Shown here one piece after another: positions 522 to 40,491 of a DNA stretch of 42,818 nucleotides (position 1 is the first letter of the stretch; the number at the start of each line of letters is the position of its first letter). Under the pieces are notes generated by a model. The model was given only the letters and a program-made list of their open reading frames with translations, was not told the origin of the DNA and made no database searches. The stretch spans positions 1-42,818 of the forward strand of contig JAFGOT010000024.1 of assembly GCA_016926395.1 (NCBI GenBank), written 5' to 3'. Source of the stretch: Candidatus Woesearchaeota archaeon. GTDB lineage: Archaea; Nanobdellota; Nanobdellia; Woesearchaeales; SKGA01. The translations under genes were made by a program, and so were the position numbers.

Positions 522-1031
522 ATGGAATACAAACGTGAACCTTTAGAAGAAGATGAAGTAATGCTACTGCGTAAATCATGCCATAACTTCGAAGAAGAAC
601 TCGCCATTAACATACTTCTTGATACGGGAATGAGAGTCTCTGAACTGGCAAATCTCAAAGAAGAAAATATTAGTTGGCAAAGAGGATGCATCACTATTAT
701 CGGTAAAGGAAAGAAACGACGAGTCATACCTTTAAGCAAGCTCGCAAAGTTCTACGTAACTCAGCTTTTTACAAAAGAAACTAAATTTCCGTTAGCGATG
801 AGAACAATACAAAAATATGTGAAAGTAGTTGCAGAAAGAGCAAGGATAAGAAAGCCTGTAAGCCCGCACGTGCTACGACACACCTTCGCTGTAACCTACT
901 TACATAAAGGTGGAAATCTTCGAGCATTACAGGCCATTCTTGGGCACAGTAGCATCACAACAACAGATATTTATCTAAACTACAGCGGAAAAAGAGTTCT
1001 TGATGATTTTGCAAAGGTGTGGGAACAATGA
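522..1031 (+). CDS. Tyrosine recombinase (Xer/integrase family), catalytic domain only, 169 aa
   Basis: TGMRVSEL, GKGKKRR, HVLRHTFA, LQAILGH and TTDIY give the R-K-HxxR-H-Y set; no N-terminal core-binding domain. Confidence 0.92.
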   Translation: MEYKREPLEEDEVMLLRKSCHNFEEELAINILLDTGMRVSELANLKEENISWQRGCITIIGKGKKRRVIPLSKLAKFYVTQLFTKETKFPLAMRTIQKYVKVVAERARIRKPVSPHVLRHTFAVTYLHKGGNLRALQAILGHSSITTTDIYLNYSGKRVLDDFAKVWEQ

Positions 1032-1663: not shown

Positions 1664-2410
1664 CTAAACAGAACTCAAGTTACAAAGCAACAAATATTGC
1701 TCTTCAAAAGCTTCCATACTAATTTCTCCACTAGCAAAGCGAAGTTTCAACACTTGTAGAGGATCCTCTATTTTCTCGAAATGTTTAGTATGACTTTGTT
1801 TTTTGCCAAAAGCTAAGTTAATTTTATTTTGCAAATCTTTATTACTGATATATGCATAGACTTGTGTTGTGTGTATATCAACATGACCTAAAGACCTTTG
1901 CACATAATACAAATCAACACCTTGCTCCAACAAATAGGTAGCATAAGTATGCCTTAATGTGTGAAAACTGTAAGCATACCTTTGTTGTCCAATAGTTGAT
2001 TTGAAAGTTTTAATACTAAGTTTAGCTTTTTCAAGATATTCCTTAAATTTTCTTGATAAAAGATTTGTCACATAAGGATTTTCATATTCATTACAAATAA
2101 AAAATTCACTTTCTTTATTGTAACGAAACCATTTTTCAAGCAAAGGCTTTAGAGCAGTTGGCAACATTACAACTCTATCTTTTGCGCCTTTTCCTTGACG
2201 AACAATTACTTTCTCAGATTCCAAATCAACATCTTGCTTTTTCAAATTGCAAACTTCACTTATTCGAAGCCCGCAAAACAAAGCAACCATACAACCCATA
2301 AAAACAGGCGCATCATCAATGTTCTCAAATAAAGAAATTAATTGTTTCTTATTCAAAACATTAGGAAGTGTTCGTTTGTTAGCGTTTGGTCGAGCAAAAT
2401 TAGTTGCCAT
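1664..2410 (-). CDS. Tyrosine recombinase/integrase with C-terminal SHOCT-like helix pair
   Basis: GLRISEV, RQGKGAKDR, HTLRHTYAT, SLGH, TTQVY; C-terminal DPLQVLKLRFASGEISMEAFEE matches the SHOCT pattern. Confidence 0.92.
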   Translation of the reverse strand: MATNFARPNANKRTLPNVLNKKQLISLFENIDDAPVFMGCMVALFCGLRISEVCNLKKQDVDLESEKVIVRQGKGAKDRVVMLPTALKPLLEKWFRYNKESEFFICNEYENPYVTNLLSRKFKEYLEKAKLSIKTFKSTIGQQRYAYSFHTLRHTYATYLLEQGVDLYYVQRSLGHVDIHTTQVYAYISNKDLQNKINLAFGKKQSHTKHFEKIEDPLQVLKLRFASGEISMEAFEEQYLLLCNLSSV

Positions 2411-5371: not shown

Positions 5372-6427
5372 ATGGCTGTTAAAAAGGTGTTAAAAGGAAC
5401 CCTTAGAATAAAAACCAAAGATTTGCAGCTATATGAAAAAACTGATTCCAACAAAGATTATTGGAAGAGATCAGACATAAGCTTGCCAGAAGCAAAGCAA
5501 GTTATTCATTTGTTTAAATCTCATAAAAACTTAAAATTATTGGTTGATTCTAAAGATTCTCGTTTTCTAAAGGGACAACTTTACAAAAATAAAATTCAAG
5601 GAGAAAGAATAAAATCACTGCCAAACGGACAAGAGGTTGATAAAGCATATTCTTTATTTTCTCCTCATTTAAATATTCATGACCAAACGTCAAATGAACA
5701 TTGGGATGTTATTTTTATGAATCCAAATGGTTCTTTTTCTTATATTTATACTCTTAATAAAAAACAAAAATCAATAAGGAAAAAATATACTAAAGTAAAA
5801 GAATTTGAAAATTGTTATCCAAAACTAAAAAGAAATGTTTTAGCTGGAATGAAAAATAATGATGAGATGGCAATTTTAATTTATACTTTGTTAAAAACGC
5901 ACATGAGGGTTGGAAATGAAATATACTTTAAACTAAGTGGTCATAAGGGATTAACAACCTTAACTAAAAAAGATATTTCTATTGATGGAAATAAACTCAC
6001 TTTTAATTATTTGGCTAAAGACGGTGTTCCAATAACAATAACGGAAAATTTTCCAGAAACATATGTTAAAAGTATGAAGTCTAAGCTATCTAAACTAAAA
6101 AGCAACGACTTTGTTTTTGCTACAAAATCAGGACATCCAATACATGAAGAAAAAATAAAATTAGCTTTCAAAAAATATTGTGGTGTTGAGTTTTATCCTC
6201 ATATTATAAGGAGTTATTATGCTACAACTGAAACTAAAAAGTTCTTAGAACTCCATAAGAAACCAAGCAAGGACGAAGTACGCAAATTATTCTTATCTAT
6301 TGCAAAAAAACTTGGTCACAAGAAATTCAGTAAAAAGCACGACGCTTGGGAAGAAAATTTTACTGTGACTTTAAATCATTACGTCGATCCAAGTTTAGTT
6401 AAAAAAATAAAAAAAATAACAAATTAA
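5372..6427 (+). CDS. Short (bacterial/poxvirus-size) DNA topoisomerase IB
   Basis: MRVGNEIY...GLTTL...FNYLAKDG...HIIRSYYAT...KLGH...HYVDP; the catalytic R-K-R-H-Y set is present. Confidence 0.8.
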   Translation: MAVKKVLKGTLRIKTKDLQLYEKTDSNKDYWKRSDISLPEAKQVIHLFKSHKNLKLLVDSKDSRFLKGQLYKNKIQGERIKSLPNGQEVDKAYSLFSPHLNIHDQTSNEHWDVIFMNPNGSFSYIYTLNKKQKSIRKKYTKVKEFENCYPKLKRNVLAGMKNNDEMAILIYTLLKTHMRVGNEIYFKLSGHKGLTTLTKKDISIDGNKLTFNYLAKDGVPITITENFPETYVKSMKSKLSKLKSNDFVFATKSGHPIHEEKIKLAFKKYCGVEFYPHIIRSYYATTETKKFLELHKKPSKDEVRKLFLSIAKKLGHKKFSKKHDAWEENFTVTLNHYVDPSLVKKIKKITN

Positions 6428-32777: not shown

Positions 32778-33362
32778 ATGAAACAACAATCTTTTATCGC
32801 AAAGACCCCAAAACACGAGTTAGAGGTGGAAGTTCTTTCTAAACTCGTTTCAAGAGATGTTTTTGATGTTAAAAAAGAACAGTTTAGAAAAATGTGCGAA
32901 GATGGTTGTAGTAATTATGGTAAAAAATACTCTTGTCCTCCGTTTTCTCCTTCTTTTGAAAAATTTCAAAATAGTTTTGAGAACTTTTTAGTTGTAATGT
33001 ATTCTATTAATTTGAATCAGTTGGCCAATTTTGATTATTCTGATTATCAAAAATTACAGATAGGAAATGCGGTTATTAAACCGAGACTTGAAAAATACAT
33101 GCGAAGTTTAGAAAATAAAACCAATACTCAATTTTTTAGTACGGGTGCATGTCGTCTTTGTAAACCTTGTAAAGGTAAACTTGGAGAACCTTGTGCAAAA
33201 CCAAACGATAAACGATATAGTTTAGAAGCTTCTGGTGTTGATTGTAATAAGCTTGCAATGGATGTTTTTGATAGGCCACTTCTTTGGTATAAAAATAAAA
33301 CTGCACCTGAATACACTTCGGTGATTGCAGCTATTCCTGTGAGCGAGACTTTTTCTTTTTGA
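32778..33362 (+). CDS. DUF2284 predicted metal-binding protein
   Basis: C...CSNYGKKYSCPP...GACRLC.PC.....PC..P...RYSLEASGVDC. Confidence 0.85.
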   Translation: MKQQSFIAKTPKHELEVEVLSKLVSRDVFDVKKEQFRKMCEDGCSNYGKKYSCPPFSPSFEKFQNSFENFLVVMYSINLNQLANFDYSDYQKLQIGNAVIKPRLEKYMRSLENKTNTQFFSTGACRLCKPCKGKLGEPCAKPNDKRYSLEASGVDCNKLAMDVFDRPLLWYKNKTAPEYTSVIAAIPVSETFSF

Positions 33363-34095
33363 ATTCTTTTTCCTTTTCTTTTAATGATTCTAATGTGATT
33401 GGTTTTTGTTTTATGTAAGTATTTTCGAAAAGAATTTTCATAATCTGGATAAATTCTTGATCTCTAATTAGCATTGTTGTGTTTTGTTCAATTAGTGTAA
33501 TCATTACTTCGAAATCGGTTATTGCTAAAGCCACTGTTTTTGATTCAAATTCGCGCATTTCGTTTTGTCCGTGTTCAACAAATTTTTTTAGATTTGGTAT
33601 TGTTTTTTCATTTACGCGATTAAGACTTTTGTAATCAATTCCTTTTTCTTTGTTTTTTTTGATGTTGCTTAATGTTTTTGCCCAAATTGTTGAATGTGGT
33701 TTTATATTGTATATGAATTTTTCTCCACTTTTCATCTGATGTGCTATTTTATCAAAATTGGCTTTACCTTTTGCAATGATGATTGGTTCTTCTTCTTGTT
33801 GTTTGTAAATTTGTTGAAGGTGCTTGACATCTGATTCTAGTTGCTTTAGCTTTTCTTGTTTTTGTTGTATTAATTTATTCAAATGTTCGGGCTCGGTTGG
33901 AGCGAACTTTTTGGTTTTTTCAGGAATAACTTTTACTAACCCTTTAGCTTCAAGCCTGTCTAAAACTTCGTAAATTTTACCATATGAAACGTTGGATTCT
34001 CTACTTACTGTGCTAGCTGTTATTGCTCCATGTTCGACTAACGTTTGATAAATTCGTTGTTCGGCAGGTGTTAATCCTAGTTCTGATAAGTCCAT
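33331..34095 (-). CDS. TrmB-family transcriptional regulator
   Basis: LSELGLT..E..IY..L...G..TA..VS..S.V...KIYEVL.RL..KGLV. Confidence 0.92.
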   Translation of the reverse strand: MDLSELGLTPAEQRIYQTLVEHGAITASTVSRESNVSYGKIYEVLDRLEAKGLVKVIPEKTKKFAPTEPEHLNKLIQQKQEKLKQLESDVKHLQQIYKQQEEEPIIIAKGKANFDKIAHQMKSGEKFIYNIKPHSTIWAKTLSNIKKNKEKGIDYKSLNRVNEKTIPNLKKFVEHGQNEMREFESKTVALAITDFEVMITLIEQNTTMLIRDQEFIQIMKILFENTYIKQKPITLESLKEKEKEFKKKKSRSQE

Positions 34096-34122
34096 ATTGT
34101 TCTTATTTTAGTATTTGTGGTT

Positions 34123-34140
34123 TAAATACATTTGTATTTA
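34123..34140. promoter_or_regulatory. Palindrome overlapping the TrmB gene TATA box
   Basis: TAAATACA-TT-TGTATTTA. Confidence 0.45.
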
Positions 34141-34233
34141 CAACCTCTTAGGAGGGGGTGATATTTTATATATTAATTTCACCTAACAGTAGTAACAAAA
34201 GGCAAACAGATTGCTTTTTGGAGGTGAATTGAA

Positions 34234-34989
34234 ATGAATAAATTAAACATACAAAAAACAAGTTTTTACAACAAAGACACTCGGCCAAAATTTGAAGGAG
34301 CTTATGGAAATCCTATTTCAAAAGAATCTTTAGATACACTGCTTGGTGGAATAAAGACGATTTGTATTAGTGATGTTGATGGAACTTATATTAATACTAA
34401 TGGAGCTGTAAGAGGGGCTCAAGCTATGGCTCTTGCAAAAATTGCAAATACTAGTTATGAAGAAGCATACGCAAATCTAGAAGAACATGGTTTGAAAGGT
34501 GCTGTTGAACAGTATATGTCTTTAAATGATTTTTTTACGGGTCCATACAAAACATTTGATCCTTTTGAAGCTGTCAAGTCTGGTCAAATGAGTGTTTTTG
34601 AAGATGCACTTAGATTTACAAGAAGTGGTGTTCCAACAATTGCTATTTCTAACTCTAGTGAACAAGCAACAAAAAATAAATTGAAAGCGCTTGGAATTGA
34701 CGATGAATTTGTTGGTATTCATGCTGCATTTCTAAAAAATGAAGCTAAACCAAATATTTACTTGGCTGAAAAAGCAATAAAAGAACTAGATGATATGGGT
34801 TGGTATAATACAAATCAACAGATTATTCATGTTGGTGATCAAGAATATGATTTGCAATTTGGACATAACATAAAACAGATTCATCCAAATGCTGTTAGTG
34901 TTTTGATTACTCGTCCTGGTAATAGTTACAAAGGAAATACGAAAGCCGATTATGTAATTTCATCATTTGATGATTTGAATACTCTTTGA
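34234..34989 (+). CDS. HAD-superfamily hydrolase
   Basis: ISDVDGT (motif I), ISNS (II), KP (III), HVGDQEYD (IV). Confidence 0.88.
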   Translation: MNKLNIQKTSFYNKDTRPKFEGAYGNPISKESLDTLLGGIKTICISDVDGTYINTNGAVRGAQAMALAKIANTSYEEAYANLEEHGLKGAVEQYMSLNDFFTGPYKTFDPFEAVKSGQMSVFEDALRFTRSGVPTIAISNSSEQATKNKLKALGIDDEFVGIHAAFLKNEAKPNIYLAEKAIKELDDMGWYNTNQQIIHVGDQEYDLQFGHNIKQIHPNAVSVLITRPGNSYKGNTKADYVISSFDDLNTL

Positions 34990-34999
34990 GGTGATTGAA

Positions 35000-35971
35000 A
35001 TGACAAAGCAATTACTTCAAGATATGAAAGAACTTTATGGTTTAACTGTTAAAGAGATATTTAGATTTGGAAAAAGTGTTAATGCTACTTACAAATTAAT
35101 AACCAAAGATGGTGAATATTTCTTAAAGGAACTTTATTTCTTTAAGGGGACTAAAAAAGAACACTTCTTTGCCCAAGTGGATATAGTTTTGCACATGAAA
35201 AAGAAAGGACTTAATGTTTTAACTCCTTTGCAAACAAAGACGGGAGGATATGTTGGAGAAATAAATAATCGTTATTACCTGCTTTATCCTTACCACGAAA
35301 TTGATGCTCCTTTGAATAATGATGATAGACTAAACTTTGCAGCAAATACTTTAGCTGATTTTCACGAAGCGATGAAAGACTTCGAAACAAAATATGAAGT
35401 TCAAGAAAAATCCATTGAAAAAGATGTGGATACTATAACTTTGTTAACTGAAGAACCAAAAACATTCCATAGTGAACCTCTTGTTGATTCAGCAAAAAAA
35501 ACCAAACATCCTTTGAAAAAAGAATTCATAAAAGAACTACCTTTCTTAAAAAATGTCGCAATAAGAATAATGCGCCATCTTTGGGGAATGCCCTTTACTG
35601 AAAAATCTTTATTACATTATGATTTTGGACCTCACAACATATTTTACTCAAAGGGAAATTTTTTAGCTGTTTCTGACTTTGATTTTTCTCACTTTGGTTT
35701 TGTTGAAGTGGATGTTGCAAAAGCTGCGAAGTTTTGGTCTGAAAAAGAAGATGGAACTATTGATCTTAGAAAGTTTAGAAGATTTATTTATGTTTATTCC
35801 AAACAGAGAAACATGAAAATAGATTGGGGTGTTTATTATGGCTTAGCATTATTTATTGTGATGAGAAGACTTGTTTATGCTACAAACTATACTTTCACAA
35901 GAAAAGATTTAAAATTTTTATATGACAAGGATATAAAAACACTTCACTTTTTGATGGAAAATAAATTTTAA
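35000..35971 (+). CDS. APH/homoserine-kinase-type-II family phosphotransferase
   Basis: YFLK, LADFH, LLHYDFGPHNIF, VSDFD; GAGGTGA SD before 35000. Confidence 0.88.
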   Translation: MTKQLLQDMKELYGLTVKEIFRFGKSVNATYKLITKDGEYFLKELYFFKGTKKEHFFAQVDIVLHMKKKGLNVLTPLQTKTGGYVGEINNRYYLLYPYHEIDAPLNNDDRLNFAANTLADFHEAMKDFETKYEVQEKSIEKDVDTITLLTEEPKTFHSEPLVDSAKKTKHPLKKEFIKELPFLKNVAIRIMRHLWGMPFTEKSLLHYDFGPHNIFYSKGNFLAVSDFDFSHFGFVEVDVAKAAKFWSEKEDGTIDLRKFRRFIYVYSKQRNMKIDWGVYYGLALFIVMRRLVYATNYTFTRKDLKFLYDKDIKTLHFLMENKF

Positions 35972-37172
35972 TTTTTTTGTTTTTTTTCTTTTAATTTAGA
36001 AAAACATATTATACTTCCAATGAAAAATATACTTGAACAGCCAATAACATATTGTATTGGAAACACATCCATTAAAGCTCCTGCAATAATTACTATGACT
36101 GTGTTAATGCCTGTGTATATCATGCTTTCAATAGATGTTGTTGTGGCTCGAATTTTGGAAGGAATTAACTTTTGAAAGTAATGTTCAAGAATTGGTCTTT
36201 TAAGACCTCTAAACATTTCTGGAACTACAAATAAACTTGCAGCGATTATGAATCTTCCTTCTTTTATGAACAAGGTTCCTAATAGCAAAATTAATTGCAT
36301 AGATGTCAAAAACATAAGTGCTTTTTTTTCATCTTTTATTTTGGACGCTAATAATGGGATAAATATCATTACTGCTGCTAGGGCCGATATAAAATAACCA
36401 ATGGACTCAACTGGAAAACCTACCGTATCCACCATTAACGGAGTCCAACCATCTTCCGCCATTAAAGCAATCGATGCAAAAATACCCGCTCCAATAACTA
36501 ACATTAAATTTCTTGTTTTTTTAATATGTTTAAATCCTTTTTTTGTTGTTTGCCAATTATTTTTTAATGCTTTTTTTACAGTTGTTTTTGCAGGTTTAAA
36601 TTTCTCTGGGATTCTTGCAAAGATTACTGCTCCTAGAATGTGGCTTGCTCCAATAATGTACCAAAGAAGATCCATAGATAAATTCTTTACAATATAACTT
36701 CCTATTAATGGCGCTATTACAAAACCTGCGTATAAAATGCTTTGATATTTGATGAAATATGTTTGTTCTAATTTTTTTTTTTTTTGTTAAATTTTAAATT
36801 GTCCATAACCCATGCTACTTCTGCTCCACTAACAAGAGTTGTTCCAAGACCAAGAATTGACCATAGTACTAATGTAGTTAAAAATGAATTACTTAAAGGT
36901 ATTAGTCCAAATGATATGCCGACAATAATCATTCCTACAACAACTGACCATTTACGACTGTATTCATCAGCAAAAGCACCTGTTGGAATTTCAAGAACAA
37001 ATGTGCTAACACCAAATATTGCAAACATTATGGATATTTGAAGAAATGATAGTCCTGTATCTAAAAAATATATGACTGCATAAGGCATTGCGACGGCAAA
37101 AGCACCTATAACAAAATTGACCAAATAAAACAGGCCTAATTCTTCAAGTTCGTTTTCTTTAAATAATTTCAA
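35968..37172 (-). pseudogene. MFS transporter split by a frameshift in an A14 tract
   Basis: 5' part has EIPTGAFADEYSRK...SGAEVAW. After the A14 tract the shifted frame reads LEQTYFIKYQSILYAGFVIAPLIGSY... into ORF 35968-36675. Confidence 0.85.
36772..36785 (-). repeat. A14 homopolymer (T14 on + strand)
   Basis: Direct count across 36772-36785. Confidence 0.9.
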
Positions 37173-37216
37173 TGTCTTAATCCTCTGGTTTTAGTTTTAT
37201 AATGCTTTCTAAAAAA

Positions 37217-37240
37217 GAAGCGAAGAGAAACTCTTCGCTA
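37217..37240. terminator. Hairpin between ABC permease and MFS gene
   Basis: GCGAAGAG-AAA-CTCTTCGC perfect 8-bp stem; coordinates approximate. Confidence 0.45.
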
Positions 37241-37267
37241 AAATAAAAATTCCTTGGATGGTTGTGA

Positions 37268-38107
37268 TTAACCATTACGTTTAAGCTGTCCTTTTTTCTT
37301 AGCAATTTTTTCTGCTCTTGAGAAAATAAACATTCCAAGTGGAATGAATATTACACCCATTAAAGCTAGCGGTACTAAGTGGCTAAGTCCAAGACTGCTA
37401 ATGCTTGCTCCTTCAATTAGTGCTTTACGCATTCCTTCAAGAGCATACGTTGCTGGACTTATTTTGGAGATTGCTTGCATCCATCCAGGCAAGATACTTA
37501 TTTCGTAGTAAATACCTGAAACAAGCATCATTAATGCACTGAATATTTGCAATGCTTGAGATCCTCTTTCTGGACTCATAAGTGGTGCAATTGAAGCAAT
37601 CATTCCAAGACCGATGAATGAAAATGCACTCACAATCAAAATAACAAATGCTGCTAAGATATTTGCATTTGAGATATTAATTGCGAAAAGCATAATCACA
37701 AAAGCTAGGACAATTGCTGTTCTTGCAATACCGTAAATCACTGCGAAAGTGGAATTTCCAAGCAAATGCACGATACGTTTTACTGGCGCCATGAAAGTAT
37801 ACTCAATAGTGCCTTCCCAACGTTCATAACCAATTTGATTACCAACTTCGTTGAAGATACTTGATAGGTATACCCACATAACTGAACCAATCAAAAGGAA
37901 TAACAATAAACTGTCAAACTTTTGACCTGTAGGATCCATGCTCGTCGCTAAAAAACCTATTGCTAATGCACTAACAGTGTGGTATATTAGGAAAACAATT
38001 TCCCATTCCCAATATCTTTTAGTTAGGTTTGAGTTTCGAACGATGAATGCACGCAGTTGACGCAGTACATTATATTTCTTGCAAGTCTCATTTTCATGAA
38101 CTCTCAT
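37268..38107 (-). CDS. ABC-2 type transporter permease
   Basis: ERWEGTIEYTFMAPVKR, SGIYYEISILP.W.Q.IS...P.TYALEGMR. Confidence 0.93.
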   Translation of the reverse strand: MRVHENETCKKYNVLRQLRAFIVRNSNLTKRYWEWEIVFLIYHTVSALAIGFLATSMDPTGQKFDSLLLFLLIGSVMWVYLSSIFNEVGNQIGYERWEGTIEYTFMAPVKRIVHLLGNSTFAVIYGIARTAIVLAFVIMLFAINISNANILAAFVILIVSAFSFIGLGMIASIAPLMSPERGSQALQIFSALMMLVSGIYYEISILPGWMQAISKISPATYALEGMRKALIEGASISSLGLSHLVPLALMGVIFIPLGMFIFSRAEKIAKKKGQLKRNG

Positions 38108-38130
38108 TTTAGTTTACCTTTTGTAGCAAT

Positions 38131-38328
38131 CTAGTTTCTTTCTACCTGTATGATTGCACTATTAGTCAAAACTTGAAATTTTACAAAACAAAATTTGTTG
38201 CGAAGAGTTGTTATTTTCTTTGAAAATAATTTTATTTGCTTTTTGAGATTATGCGAATATTTTTTCGCATTCAAAAAACAAATCTTTTTCTTCAAGGCAA
38301 CTAATTTGTTTGTTTTGTATTTTCTCAC
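38131..38328 (-). CDS. Small basic ORF between ATPase and permease (uncertain)
   Basis: GTG start overlaps the ATPase TGA; Lys-rich, no family recognised. Confidence 0.3.
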   Translation of the reverse strand: MRKYKTNKLVALKKKICFLNAKKYSHNLKKQIKLFSKKITTLRNKFCFVKFQVLTNSAIIQVERN

Positions 38329-39347
38329 TCAAGATGTTTGCCAGTTAATTTAACAAACACATCTTCCAGAGAGGGGAGGATTTTGACTAAACCGATAAAA
38401 CCAATGTCATTATTATCAAGCGCACCAATTATTTCACTTGCAACGCTATCAATACGTTTAGTTTTGAAAGTTAATCGGTTGTTCTTCTTTTCATCAACTT
38501 CTAGTTTGATTTCATTAACCTTAATCATTTTTTCAAGTAATGATTTTGACTTTTCAGGTTCTGTTGTTTGCAGTTCAAAGAGGTTGTTATCTGAATATTT
38601 TTGTTTTAATTCTTTAACACTACCTTGAGCAATAACAGCTCCGTCATTCATAATAACTAAATCATCGCAAAGTTTTTCAATTTCATCCATATCATGGCTA
38701 GTGATGATTATAGTTATGTCACGTTCTTTCATTACTTTTTTCACAAACCGAAGTACATCAATCTTGGATACTGGATCAAGACCTGTTGTTGGTTCGTCAA
38801 GCAAAATGATTTTTGGTTTGGCTAAAAATCCTCTAGCTATTGCAATCTTTTGTTGTTGACCTCGAGAAAGTTTTTCAACAGGAGAATCTTCAATAAAAGT
38901 ATTTGGAGTTGATGTCGAAGAACAACCATCTAGAGTAAAAGATTTCATTGGCAGAGTTAGCGTGGATGCTTCATTTTTTATGAAATTAACACCACTTGAA
39001 AATCTCGACTATGCTGCAGGTCTTTACGGACTTGACAAAGAGAAAGCAAAAACAGAAGCAGAAAAAATATTAAAAGAACTTGGTTTTCCACAAAGTAAAC
39101 AACCTGTATCTGGAAGGATTAAAGTTGTCATCATACGAATTAACGTTGATTTACCACAACCATTAGGTCCTAATATTCCAAAAACACTTTTATTTTTTAC
39201 AGTAAATGAAATATTTTTTACTGAATGGAATAACTTAGCTTTCTTTAAACCAAGACGCTGTGCTAATCCGTTTGTGTTTGCGTCAGTGAAATATTTGTTG
39301 ACGTCTTTAACGACCAATGCATACTCTTCATACTTGTCTACATTCAT
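38325..39347 (-). pseudogene. ABC-2 (DrrA-like) ATP-binding protein interrupted by an internal inversion
   Basis: Walker A part (GPNGCGKST) and signature/Walker B part (LSRGQQQK, LLDEPTTGLDP) lie on the - strand; the middle part is on the + strand. The span is 1023 nt, or 340 aa once re-inverted. Confidence 0.9.
38890..39101 (+). other. Inverted internal segment of the ABC ATPase gene
   Basis: + strand reads SIKVFGVDVEEQPSRVKDFIGRVSVDASFFMKLTPLENLDYAAGLYG...LGFPQSK, which is the missing middle of the gene. Confidence 0.9.
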
Positions 39348-39531
39348 TTTGTTTGTATTACGTGTTGATGTTTTGGACGGCAAGGTCACAAGCACACGAT
39401 TTGTCGTTGAATTTTACCAACCGATAAAGAACTGCACACAAAATTATTGTTCTTTATTTTTTTAGAAATAAATTGTAGAGTAATTTCTACAACTTATATC
39501 ATAATGATTCGTCTAGGTTAAACACCTAAAC

Positions 39532-39597
39532 TTAGAATAAAGCATAGGCGTATCTAGAAACGATATCAAGGCCACTGATTCTTGTTATTTGTTTCAT
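39532..39597 (-). CDS. Putative 21-aa leader/small peptide upstream of the ABC-2 operon
   Basis: MKQITRISGLDIVSRYAYALF with GGTGA SD and upstream TTTATAAA; followed by two hairpins. Confidence 0.4.
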   Translation of the reverse strand: MKQITRISGLDIVSRYAYALF

Positions 39598-39742
39598 AGT
39601 TTCACCATAAATTTGATTATGTGTATTTAGCTTGATACTTTTTATTTATAAAAATTAGTGTTCTAGAGAATATAGTTATTACTTGACGGTGACATATATT
39701 TATTATAGTTATCTTTAAAAAAACCCTTTCTTAACAAACTGT

Positions 39743-40159
39743 ATGCTTCCAAAAAAATTACAAGAAATAATTGACGATTTTTCAATATTAGATACTCAAG
39801 AAGAGAAATATGAAGCTTTAATTGAATTTGGCCAAGAGTTAGGTTCTTTTTCTGATGATCTAAAAACAGAGAAAAATATGATTGCGGGCTGTATGTCTGA
39901 AGTCTATATTGATGTTGAGGTTGAAAATAATGTGGTTCATTTGAAAGGATGGGCTAGTTCAGTTCTCGTAAAAGGTTTGATTTCTATTTTAGTGATTGGT
40001 CTTGATGGTTTGAGTGTTGATGAGGTGCTCTCTTTAACGCCAGAATTCATAAAAGAGACGGGAATAACGTCTAGTTTAACAACTTCTAGGGCGAATACTC
40101 CTTTAAATGTTCTAACAACAATTCAAAGCAGAGTAAAACGTCAAATTAAATCTAATTAG
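39743..40159 (+). CDS. sufE: SufE-family sulfur acceptor
   Basis: EKYEALIEFG..L...K.EKN.IAGCMSEVY...S.LVKGLI.IL. Confidence 0.9.
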   Translation: MLPKKLQEIIDDFSILDTQEEKYEALIEFGQELGSFSDDLKTEKNMIAGCMSEVYIDVEVENNVVHLKGWASSVLVKGLISILVIGLDGLSVDEVLSLTPEFIKETGITSSLTTSRANTPLNVLTTIQSRVKRQIKSN

Positions 40160-40227
40160 TTCTTATTTATCTTTAAATTGTTTTTTTGACCTATTTTTTC
40201 TTTAGGCACCAGTTAAAATATTGTTTA

Positions 40228-40256
40228 AATCAGTCTAAACTGTCTTTAGACTGGTT
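40228..40256. terminator. Hairpin between convergent genes
   Basis: CAGTCTAAA-CTGTC-TTTAGACTG perfect 9-bp stem. Confidence 0.45.
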
Positions 40257-40329
40257 AGAAATTGCCTTTTATAACTATAAATTGTTTCTAAAATCAGAAT
40301 TAAAAAAATAAAAAATTGAGAAGAAAGAT

Positions 40330-40491
40330 TTACTCTTCTTCTTCAGCAAATTTCTTAATTTCGTCTATATTTGACATAATTAGTTTTGCTTTCATTTTTC
40401 CAAAAGAAAAAGGCCACTTCCCTTCAGGGTCGTTATCATTGATTAATTTAATCATTTTGTTTCCTTTAAATTCGCCGAATTCTACTGCCAT
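40330..40491 (-). CDS. Conserved small protein, 53 aa (absent from ORF track)
   Basis: MAVEFGEFKGNKMIKLINDNDPEGKWPFSFGKMKAKLIMSNIDEIKKFAEEEE; AGGTG SD. The EFKG...PFSFG..KAKLI...I..IK.F pattern matches a small conserved family as I recall it. Confidence 0.8.
   Translation of the reverse strand: MAVEFGEFKGNKMIKLINDNDPEGKWPFSFGKMKAKLIMSNIDEIKKFAEEEE

Follow-up and report, generated by a model that had tools for sequence, protein, structure and literature searches.

A balanced 212-bp inversion splits an ABC-2 exporter ATPase gene in a Woesearchaeota archaeon and is probably a one-off event

Introduction

How does a gene for an ABC transporter ATPase come to lie in three pieces, the middle one on the opposite strand, with every piece still open? 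This question is raised by a locus of a Candidatus Woesearchaeota archaeon, for which an earlier note, made from the letters alone, had offered three readings: an intragenic ON/OFF switch, a one-off illegitimate inversion, or an assembly or amplification chimera. We analysed the stretch of DNA that holds the locus (the window; 42,818 nucleotides), which is the whole of contig C30 of a 1.02-Mb, 40-contig, 82.5%-complete genome. Here we report that the locus carries a balanced inversion which, in our best reading, arose once and left a young null allele.

Results

A 212-bp inversion inside a DrrA-type ATPase gene

Upon re-inverting positions 38890–39101 in silico we obtained a single open frame of 340 codons on the minus strand, beginning with an ATG at 39347, with zero bases gained and zero lost; the inversion is therefore balanced and reciprocal. 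The inverted segment is 212 bp long and lies inside a gene for a DrrA-type ABC-2 ATPase, where, as present, it reads as nonsense on the minus strand and as an open 70-codon stretch on the plus strand. One junction lies within codon 82 (Gly) of the restored frame and the other within codon 153 (Gln). The earlier note had described a clean inversion of about 212 bp within an ABC ATPase gene, and this description held in every detail. The pieces of the gene, the junctions and the neighbouring operon gene are as follows.

39103–39347, minus strand: N-terminal piece of the ATPase, codons 1–81 plus 2 nt of codon 82 (ABC_tran positions 1–37, E 4.8e-10)
39101–39102: right junction, AA, one half of the 2-bp inverted microhomology
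38890–39101, plus strand: inverted middle piece, residues 82/83–153 (SIKVFGVDVEE...GFPQSK), recognised by homologue match and codon usage
38889–38890: left junction, TT, the other half of the 2-bp inverted microhomology, the breakpoint being ambiguous inside it
38325–38888, minus strand: C-terminal piece, residues 154–340 and the stop codon (ABC_tran positions 106–137; DrrA1-3_C, E 6.5e-9)
37268–38107, minus strand: partner ABC-2 permease, intact, 279 aa, downstream in the same operon (ABC2_membrane, E 1.9e-19)

The N-terminal piece carries Walker A (GPNGCGKST at residue 60) and, as present, continues into 26 nonsense codons up to a stop at 39024; minus-strand coding of the ATPase start spans 39395–39103. 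The middle piece is 57–76% identical to the corresponding part of full-length ABC ATPases of 311–346 aa, and its codon usage scores best in the plus-strand frame (26.8 vs. −10.6 for the best minus-strand frame). The signature LSRGQQQK, Walker B, the H-loop and the DrrA-type C-terminal domain are held by the C-terminal piece, which is presently called as a 207-aa open reading frame from a chance ATG at 38948. Across the pieces none of the motifs (Walker A, the signature, Walker B, the H-loop) is damaged. Assignment to the DrrA-type ABC-2 ATPases rests on the ABC_tran and DrrA1-3_C matches of the pieces and on the adjacent ABC2_membrane permease; full-length relatives carry PF00005 and PF13732.

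Examination of both junctions revealed no inverted repeat longer than 2 bp, in agreement with the microhomology of TT (38889–38890) and AA (39101–39102) that had been noted earlier. Owing to this TT/AA pair the breakpoints can slide by up to 2 bp without changing the restored product, so that boundaries of 38889–39102 or 38891–39100 give a product identical to that of the 38890–39101 flip. When random pairs of sites were taken from this window at a spacing of 212 bp, 19.6% showed an inverted match of 2 bp or longer; the microhomology is therefore at chance level and carries no weight.

The restored protein is collinear with intact homologues

We compared the restored protein with its homologues. 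It aligned with protein P0009 at 64% identity over 334 aa with no gaps, as expected if reversal of an illegitimate inversion restores a homologue-collinear sequence. With a protein from a Woesearchaeota metagenome-assembled genome (MAG) it shared 54% identity over 336 aa without an indel at either junction, and with a Sulfobacillus MAG protein 52% over 224 aa with no gaps; the closest genome match to the ATPase also comes from a Woesearchaeota MAG. Such exact restoration together with collinearity cannot be attributed to chance, and the intact arrangement is clearly the ancestral one. Within the genome itself, paralogues of the ATPase at about 30% identity are encoded on contigs C15, C19 and C35.

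Related loci searched for in metagenome and genome collections yielded distant homologues only, at 52% identity or less. In a search of 40 related genomes, made with both DNA and protein, the C-terminal piece found matches of no more than 45% identity (30–38% in genomes of the same genus), and a synteny search via SufE met with SufE identities of only about 42% in same-genus genomes. Since these relatives are so distant (45% for the ATPase, 42% for SufE), orientation at the orthologous locus is not comparable in the 40 genomes, and since the nearest intact relative is just 64% identical, synonymous sites are saturated.

The flipped arrangement recurs in per-run assemblies

We located the same locus in Logan assemblies, which use k = 31, by looking for exact copies of the proteins encoded next to it, namely the permease, SufE and the major facilitator superfamily (MFS) products. 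A Logan contig of run SRR13394436 (11,516 bp) matched window positions 33267–40411 at 99.986% and ran unbroken through both junctions, with the 600 bp of 38701–39300 identical base for base; the sole difference was the length of a T-run at 36772–36785. The corresponding contig of run SRR13394437 (4,862 bp), judged by gene calls and not by DNA, carries the 207-aa, 167-aa and SufE calls with exactly the spacing seen in the window, as is characteristic of the flipped form. The flipped form was thus found in all three assemblies from two runs, SRR13394437 being judged by its gene calls. Three agreeing assemblies with contigs unbroken at the junctions rule out an assembler artefact and indicate that flipped junctions dominate the reads; the two per-run assemblies in this way contradict the assembly chimera that the earlier note had considered.

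The flipped orientation is the only one assembled, in the window and in the two per-run Logan assemblies, a minority of intact molecules being possible, and junction sequences of the intact orientation are absent from the bin. Among the 5.8 billion proteins of a collection, none of full length matched the middle piece exactly, the only near-identical match being the 167-aa open reading frame of the flipped form on two contigs. In our best reading the flipped allele is the dominant and probably the only form in the sampled population. No palindromic or hairpin-type chimeras were seen across the 1.0-Mb assembly.

Contig ends in this assembly overlap by 57 bp, as expected for short-read de Bruijn assembly. 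Contigs C6, C7 and C10 share an identical 57-bp end (the first 57 bases; inverted in C10), which probably reflects a repeat node in the graph of the assembly. Going by the offsets of its gene calls, the contig of SRR13394437 would start at window position 37957, inside the permease gene, and end exactly at the last base, 42818; the graphs may thus have branch points in common at 37957 and 42818, due to repeats or strain variation.

The T-run mentioned above is a T14 tract (A14 in the gene sense) that separates two minus-strand open reading frames of 134 aa (36768–37172) and 235 aa (35968–36675). The 235-aa frame matches Pfam MFS_1 and the 134-aa frame resembles an MFS N-terminus by eye, and together they look like one MFS transporter gene adjoining the broken ABC operon. 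The tract is T13 in the SRR13394436 Logan assembly, and a T15 would give one open reading frame of 403 codons. The MFS gene may carry a frameshift, vary in the length of its tract or be rescued when slippage occurs at poly(A); alternatively, short reads may simply not give the tract length reliably.

The inversion is isolated in the genome

We scanned the genome for gapless frame/antiframe/frame tilings in which each part scores best in codon usage on its own strand, requiring flanks of 50 codons or more and a segment between 75 nt and about 4 kb in length. This codon-score filter was used in place of a triplet version with lenient thresholds, which had given 9,330 hits. The scan recovered the ATPase site among 59 raw candidates. 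Of the 58 others, ten were flanked on both sides by 85 codons or more, and each of these proved to consist of ordinary adjacent genes that have stop and start codons of their own, so that the ATPase site is the one broken gene among the 11 candidates with such flanks (the individual check covered these 11; the remaining 48 had shorter flanks). On this basis the inversion is isolated.

Recombinase genes lie far from the site

Four genes with a PF00589 match are present in the genome, the nearest 36 kb from the inversion. Two of these tyrosine recombinase (Phage_integrase) genes are found in the window, at 522–1031 (plus strand) and 1664–2410 (minus strand), and two more on contigs C18 and C6; the pair close together at the contig start could be the trace of an element that integrated at this end of the contig. 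No serine recombinase was detected as a PF00239 match in the 82.5%-complete genome. Half-sites of the serine-invertase kind were rejected upon inspection by eye, the 12-bp junction flanks matching at 4 of 12 and 2 of 12 positions.

A small topoisomerase IB (TopIB) of 351 aa is encoded at 5372–6427 on the plus strand (Pfam Topoisom_I catalytic core, E 1e-13); the earlier note had mentioned a TopIB in the window. TopIB is not known to belong to the standard archaeal topoisomerase set.

Consequence and age of the inversion

The gene as present would give no more than two products, a Walker-A stub of 123 aa and a C-terminal fragment of 207 aa. Split in this way into a stub, an opposite-strand middle and a C-terminal remnant, it would give no functional ATPase, and we predict that the exporter does not work, unless a different ATPase takes over. 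The ATPase and permease pair looks like an accessory exporter. Rescue at the RNA level, by trans-splicing of an opposite-strand exon (compare the split genes of Nanoarchaeota), was considered and rejected, there being no hint of it in the sequence.

None of the three pieces contains stops, frameshifts or damaged motifs. Since all pieces keep open frames and intact ATPase motifs, the inversion appears to be recent.

Discussion

Taken together, we regard it as quite likely that the locus records a spontaneous, conservative and illegitimate 212-bp inversion that occurred once and produced a young null allele, not a switch; among the three readings offered earlier, it is the one-off inversion that we favour. 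Such an event would have taken place in the lineage of this archaeon and would have hit an ABC-2 exporter operon of two genes in its ATPase gene. It could have proceeded by two breaks rejoined in flipped orientation or by an exact double template switch; the geometry would also be compatible with cutting at a 2-nt stagger, as by topoisomerase VI. We infer that the event was a one-off, and our best reading of the allele is a young pseudogene at or near fixation. Some points count against this reading: a balanced inversion with just 2 bp of homology is an uncommon product of the usual repair pathways, the relatives are too distant to date the event, and the absence of secondary decay is compatible also with a reversible element or an artefact.

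An artefact would have to lie in the DNA itself, for example as an early whole-genome-amplification chimera that came to dominate the reads of both runs. Multiple displacement amplification does yield mostly inverted chimeras at short complementary stretches close to one another (PMC1855051), and the consecutive accessions SRR13394436 and SRR13394437 may share one DNA preparation. Chimeras of this sort, however, are single junctions, inverted and with an intervening deletion (PMC1855051), whereas the inversion described here is balanced: it would need two reciprocal junctions with exactly mirrored bases, both out-competing the native ones in two runs, and neither hairpin chimeras nor a second clean inversion were found in the assembly. 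Since it takes one amplified preparation behind both runs and an improbable double event that took over, we consider such an artefact unlikely.

The DNA might instead have been inverted, once, specifically by a topoisomerase, either TopIB cutting after TT on opposite strands or topoisomerase VI exchanging subunits between two 2-nt staggered breaks. Genes for both are at hand, TopIB in the window and the topoisomerase VI A subunit on contig C15. The TopIB link had been suggested on the ground that both cuts follow TT. There is indeed a TT at both; the two are one observation and not two, since the inverted TT/AA pair necessarily places TT on opposite strands. Poxvirus and bacterial-type TopIB enzymes cleave at (C/T)CCTT, and the junction sequences AGGTT and ATCTT are not CCCTT-like, although this consensus may not be the specificity of the archaeal enzyme; with a match that 19.6% of site pairs share, the TopIB link is left unsupported. 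Type IIB enzymes, for their part, cut with 2-nt overhangs (PMC12203943), and if an inverted dinucleotide were cut twice in this manner, the ends could be rejoined in flipped orientation without loss of bases, matching the geometry. Since the 2-bp match is at chance level and an enzyme is not identifiable from a single event, none can be assigned, and a topoisomerase-specific origin strikes us as distinctly unlikely.

It had also been proposed that the segment may be an ON/OFF switch. As such it would be an intragenic inverton that a recombinase flips reversibly, in a sampled population that happens to be mostly OFF. In its favour, the inversion is perfectly conservative, the frame is restored upon reversal, the pieces are undecayed, and the genome has four tyrosine recombinase genes, two of them on the same contig. 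Tyrosine recombinases, however, need identical overlap regions of about 6–8 bp, and the genes in question are at least 36 kb from the site with none linked to it; no serine invertase was found in the assembly. Intragenic invertons with premature stops have been documented, one of them in an archaeon, and are defined by flanking inverted repeats that an invertase recognises (PMC10028968), whereas the only bounding pair here is TT/AA, 2 bp at chance level. With one orientation in three assemblies, contigs unbroken through both junctions and no second such site in the genome, the switch is without positive support and we judge it very improbable. Even less probable, to the point of being remote, is a repeat-independent conservative inversion by a 2-nt-stagger enzyme (topoisomerase VI subunit exchange or an unrecognised recombinase) that would serve a DPANN archaeon as a reversible intragenic transporter switch.

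Read as a one-off event, the locus is a clean documented case of a balanced 212-bp and nearly homology-free inversion that has disabled the gene of an accessory transporter in an archaeon with a reduced genome, caught ahead of further decay, and it adds one data point on gene death in DPANN genomes. The mutation is of a known kind, of which this is another instance, and it opens no new mechanism. For annotation it carries a warning: a 207-aa 'ABC ATPase' and a 167-aa 'hypothetical protein' are fragments of one gene.

Among known systems, the locus resembles DrrA/DrrB-type ABC-2 exporters in its full domain set once restored, its adjacent permease and its full-length relatives at 54–64% identity; it differs in that its ATPase gene is interrupted and the system predicted to be dead. 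With intragenic invertons (Chanin, West et al., PMC10028968) it shares an inversion inside a coding sequence with premature stops in one orientation; those elements have recognisable inverted repeats and, via their invertase, mixed orientations in a clonal population, whereas neither repeats nor a mixture was seen in the assemblies here. The inverted chimeras of multiple displacement amplification (Lasken and Stockwell, 2007, PMC1855051) likewise connect sequences that lie close together on opposite strands, through a complementary stretch of very few bases; they have a single junction with a deletion and a low frequency per site, in contrast to the balanced, two-junction inversion that dominates three assemblies. 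Most described spontaneous inversions share 4–7 bp or more at their junctions, whereas the 2 bp found here are indistinguishable from no homology. The inversion is nevertheless like those of the E. coli lacZ type in being small, reciprocal and gene-inactivating, with no dedicated recombinase found, a single orientation in the assemblies and junctions that share a short inverted match; in lacZ, spontaneous inversions reportedly arose at short inverted repeats or microhomology in the work of Schofield, Agbunag and Miller from 1992.
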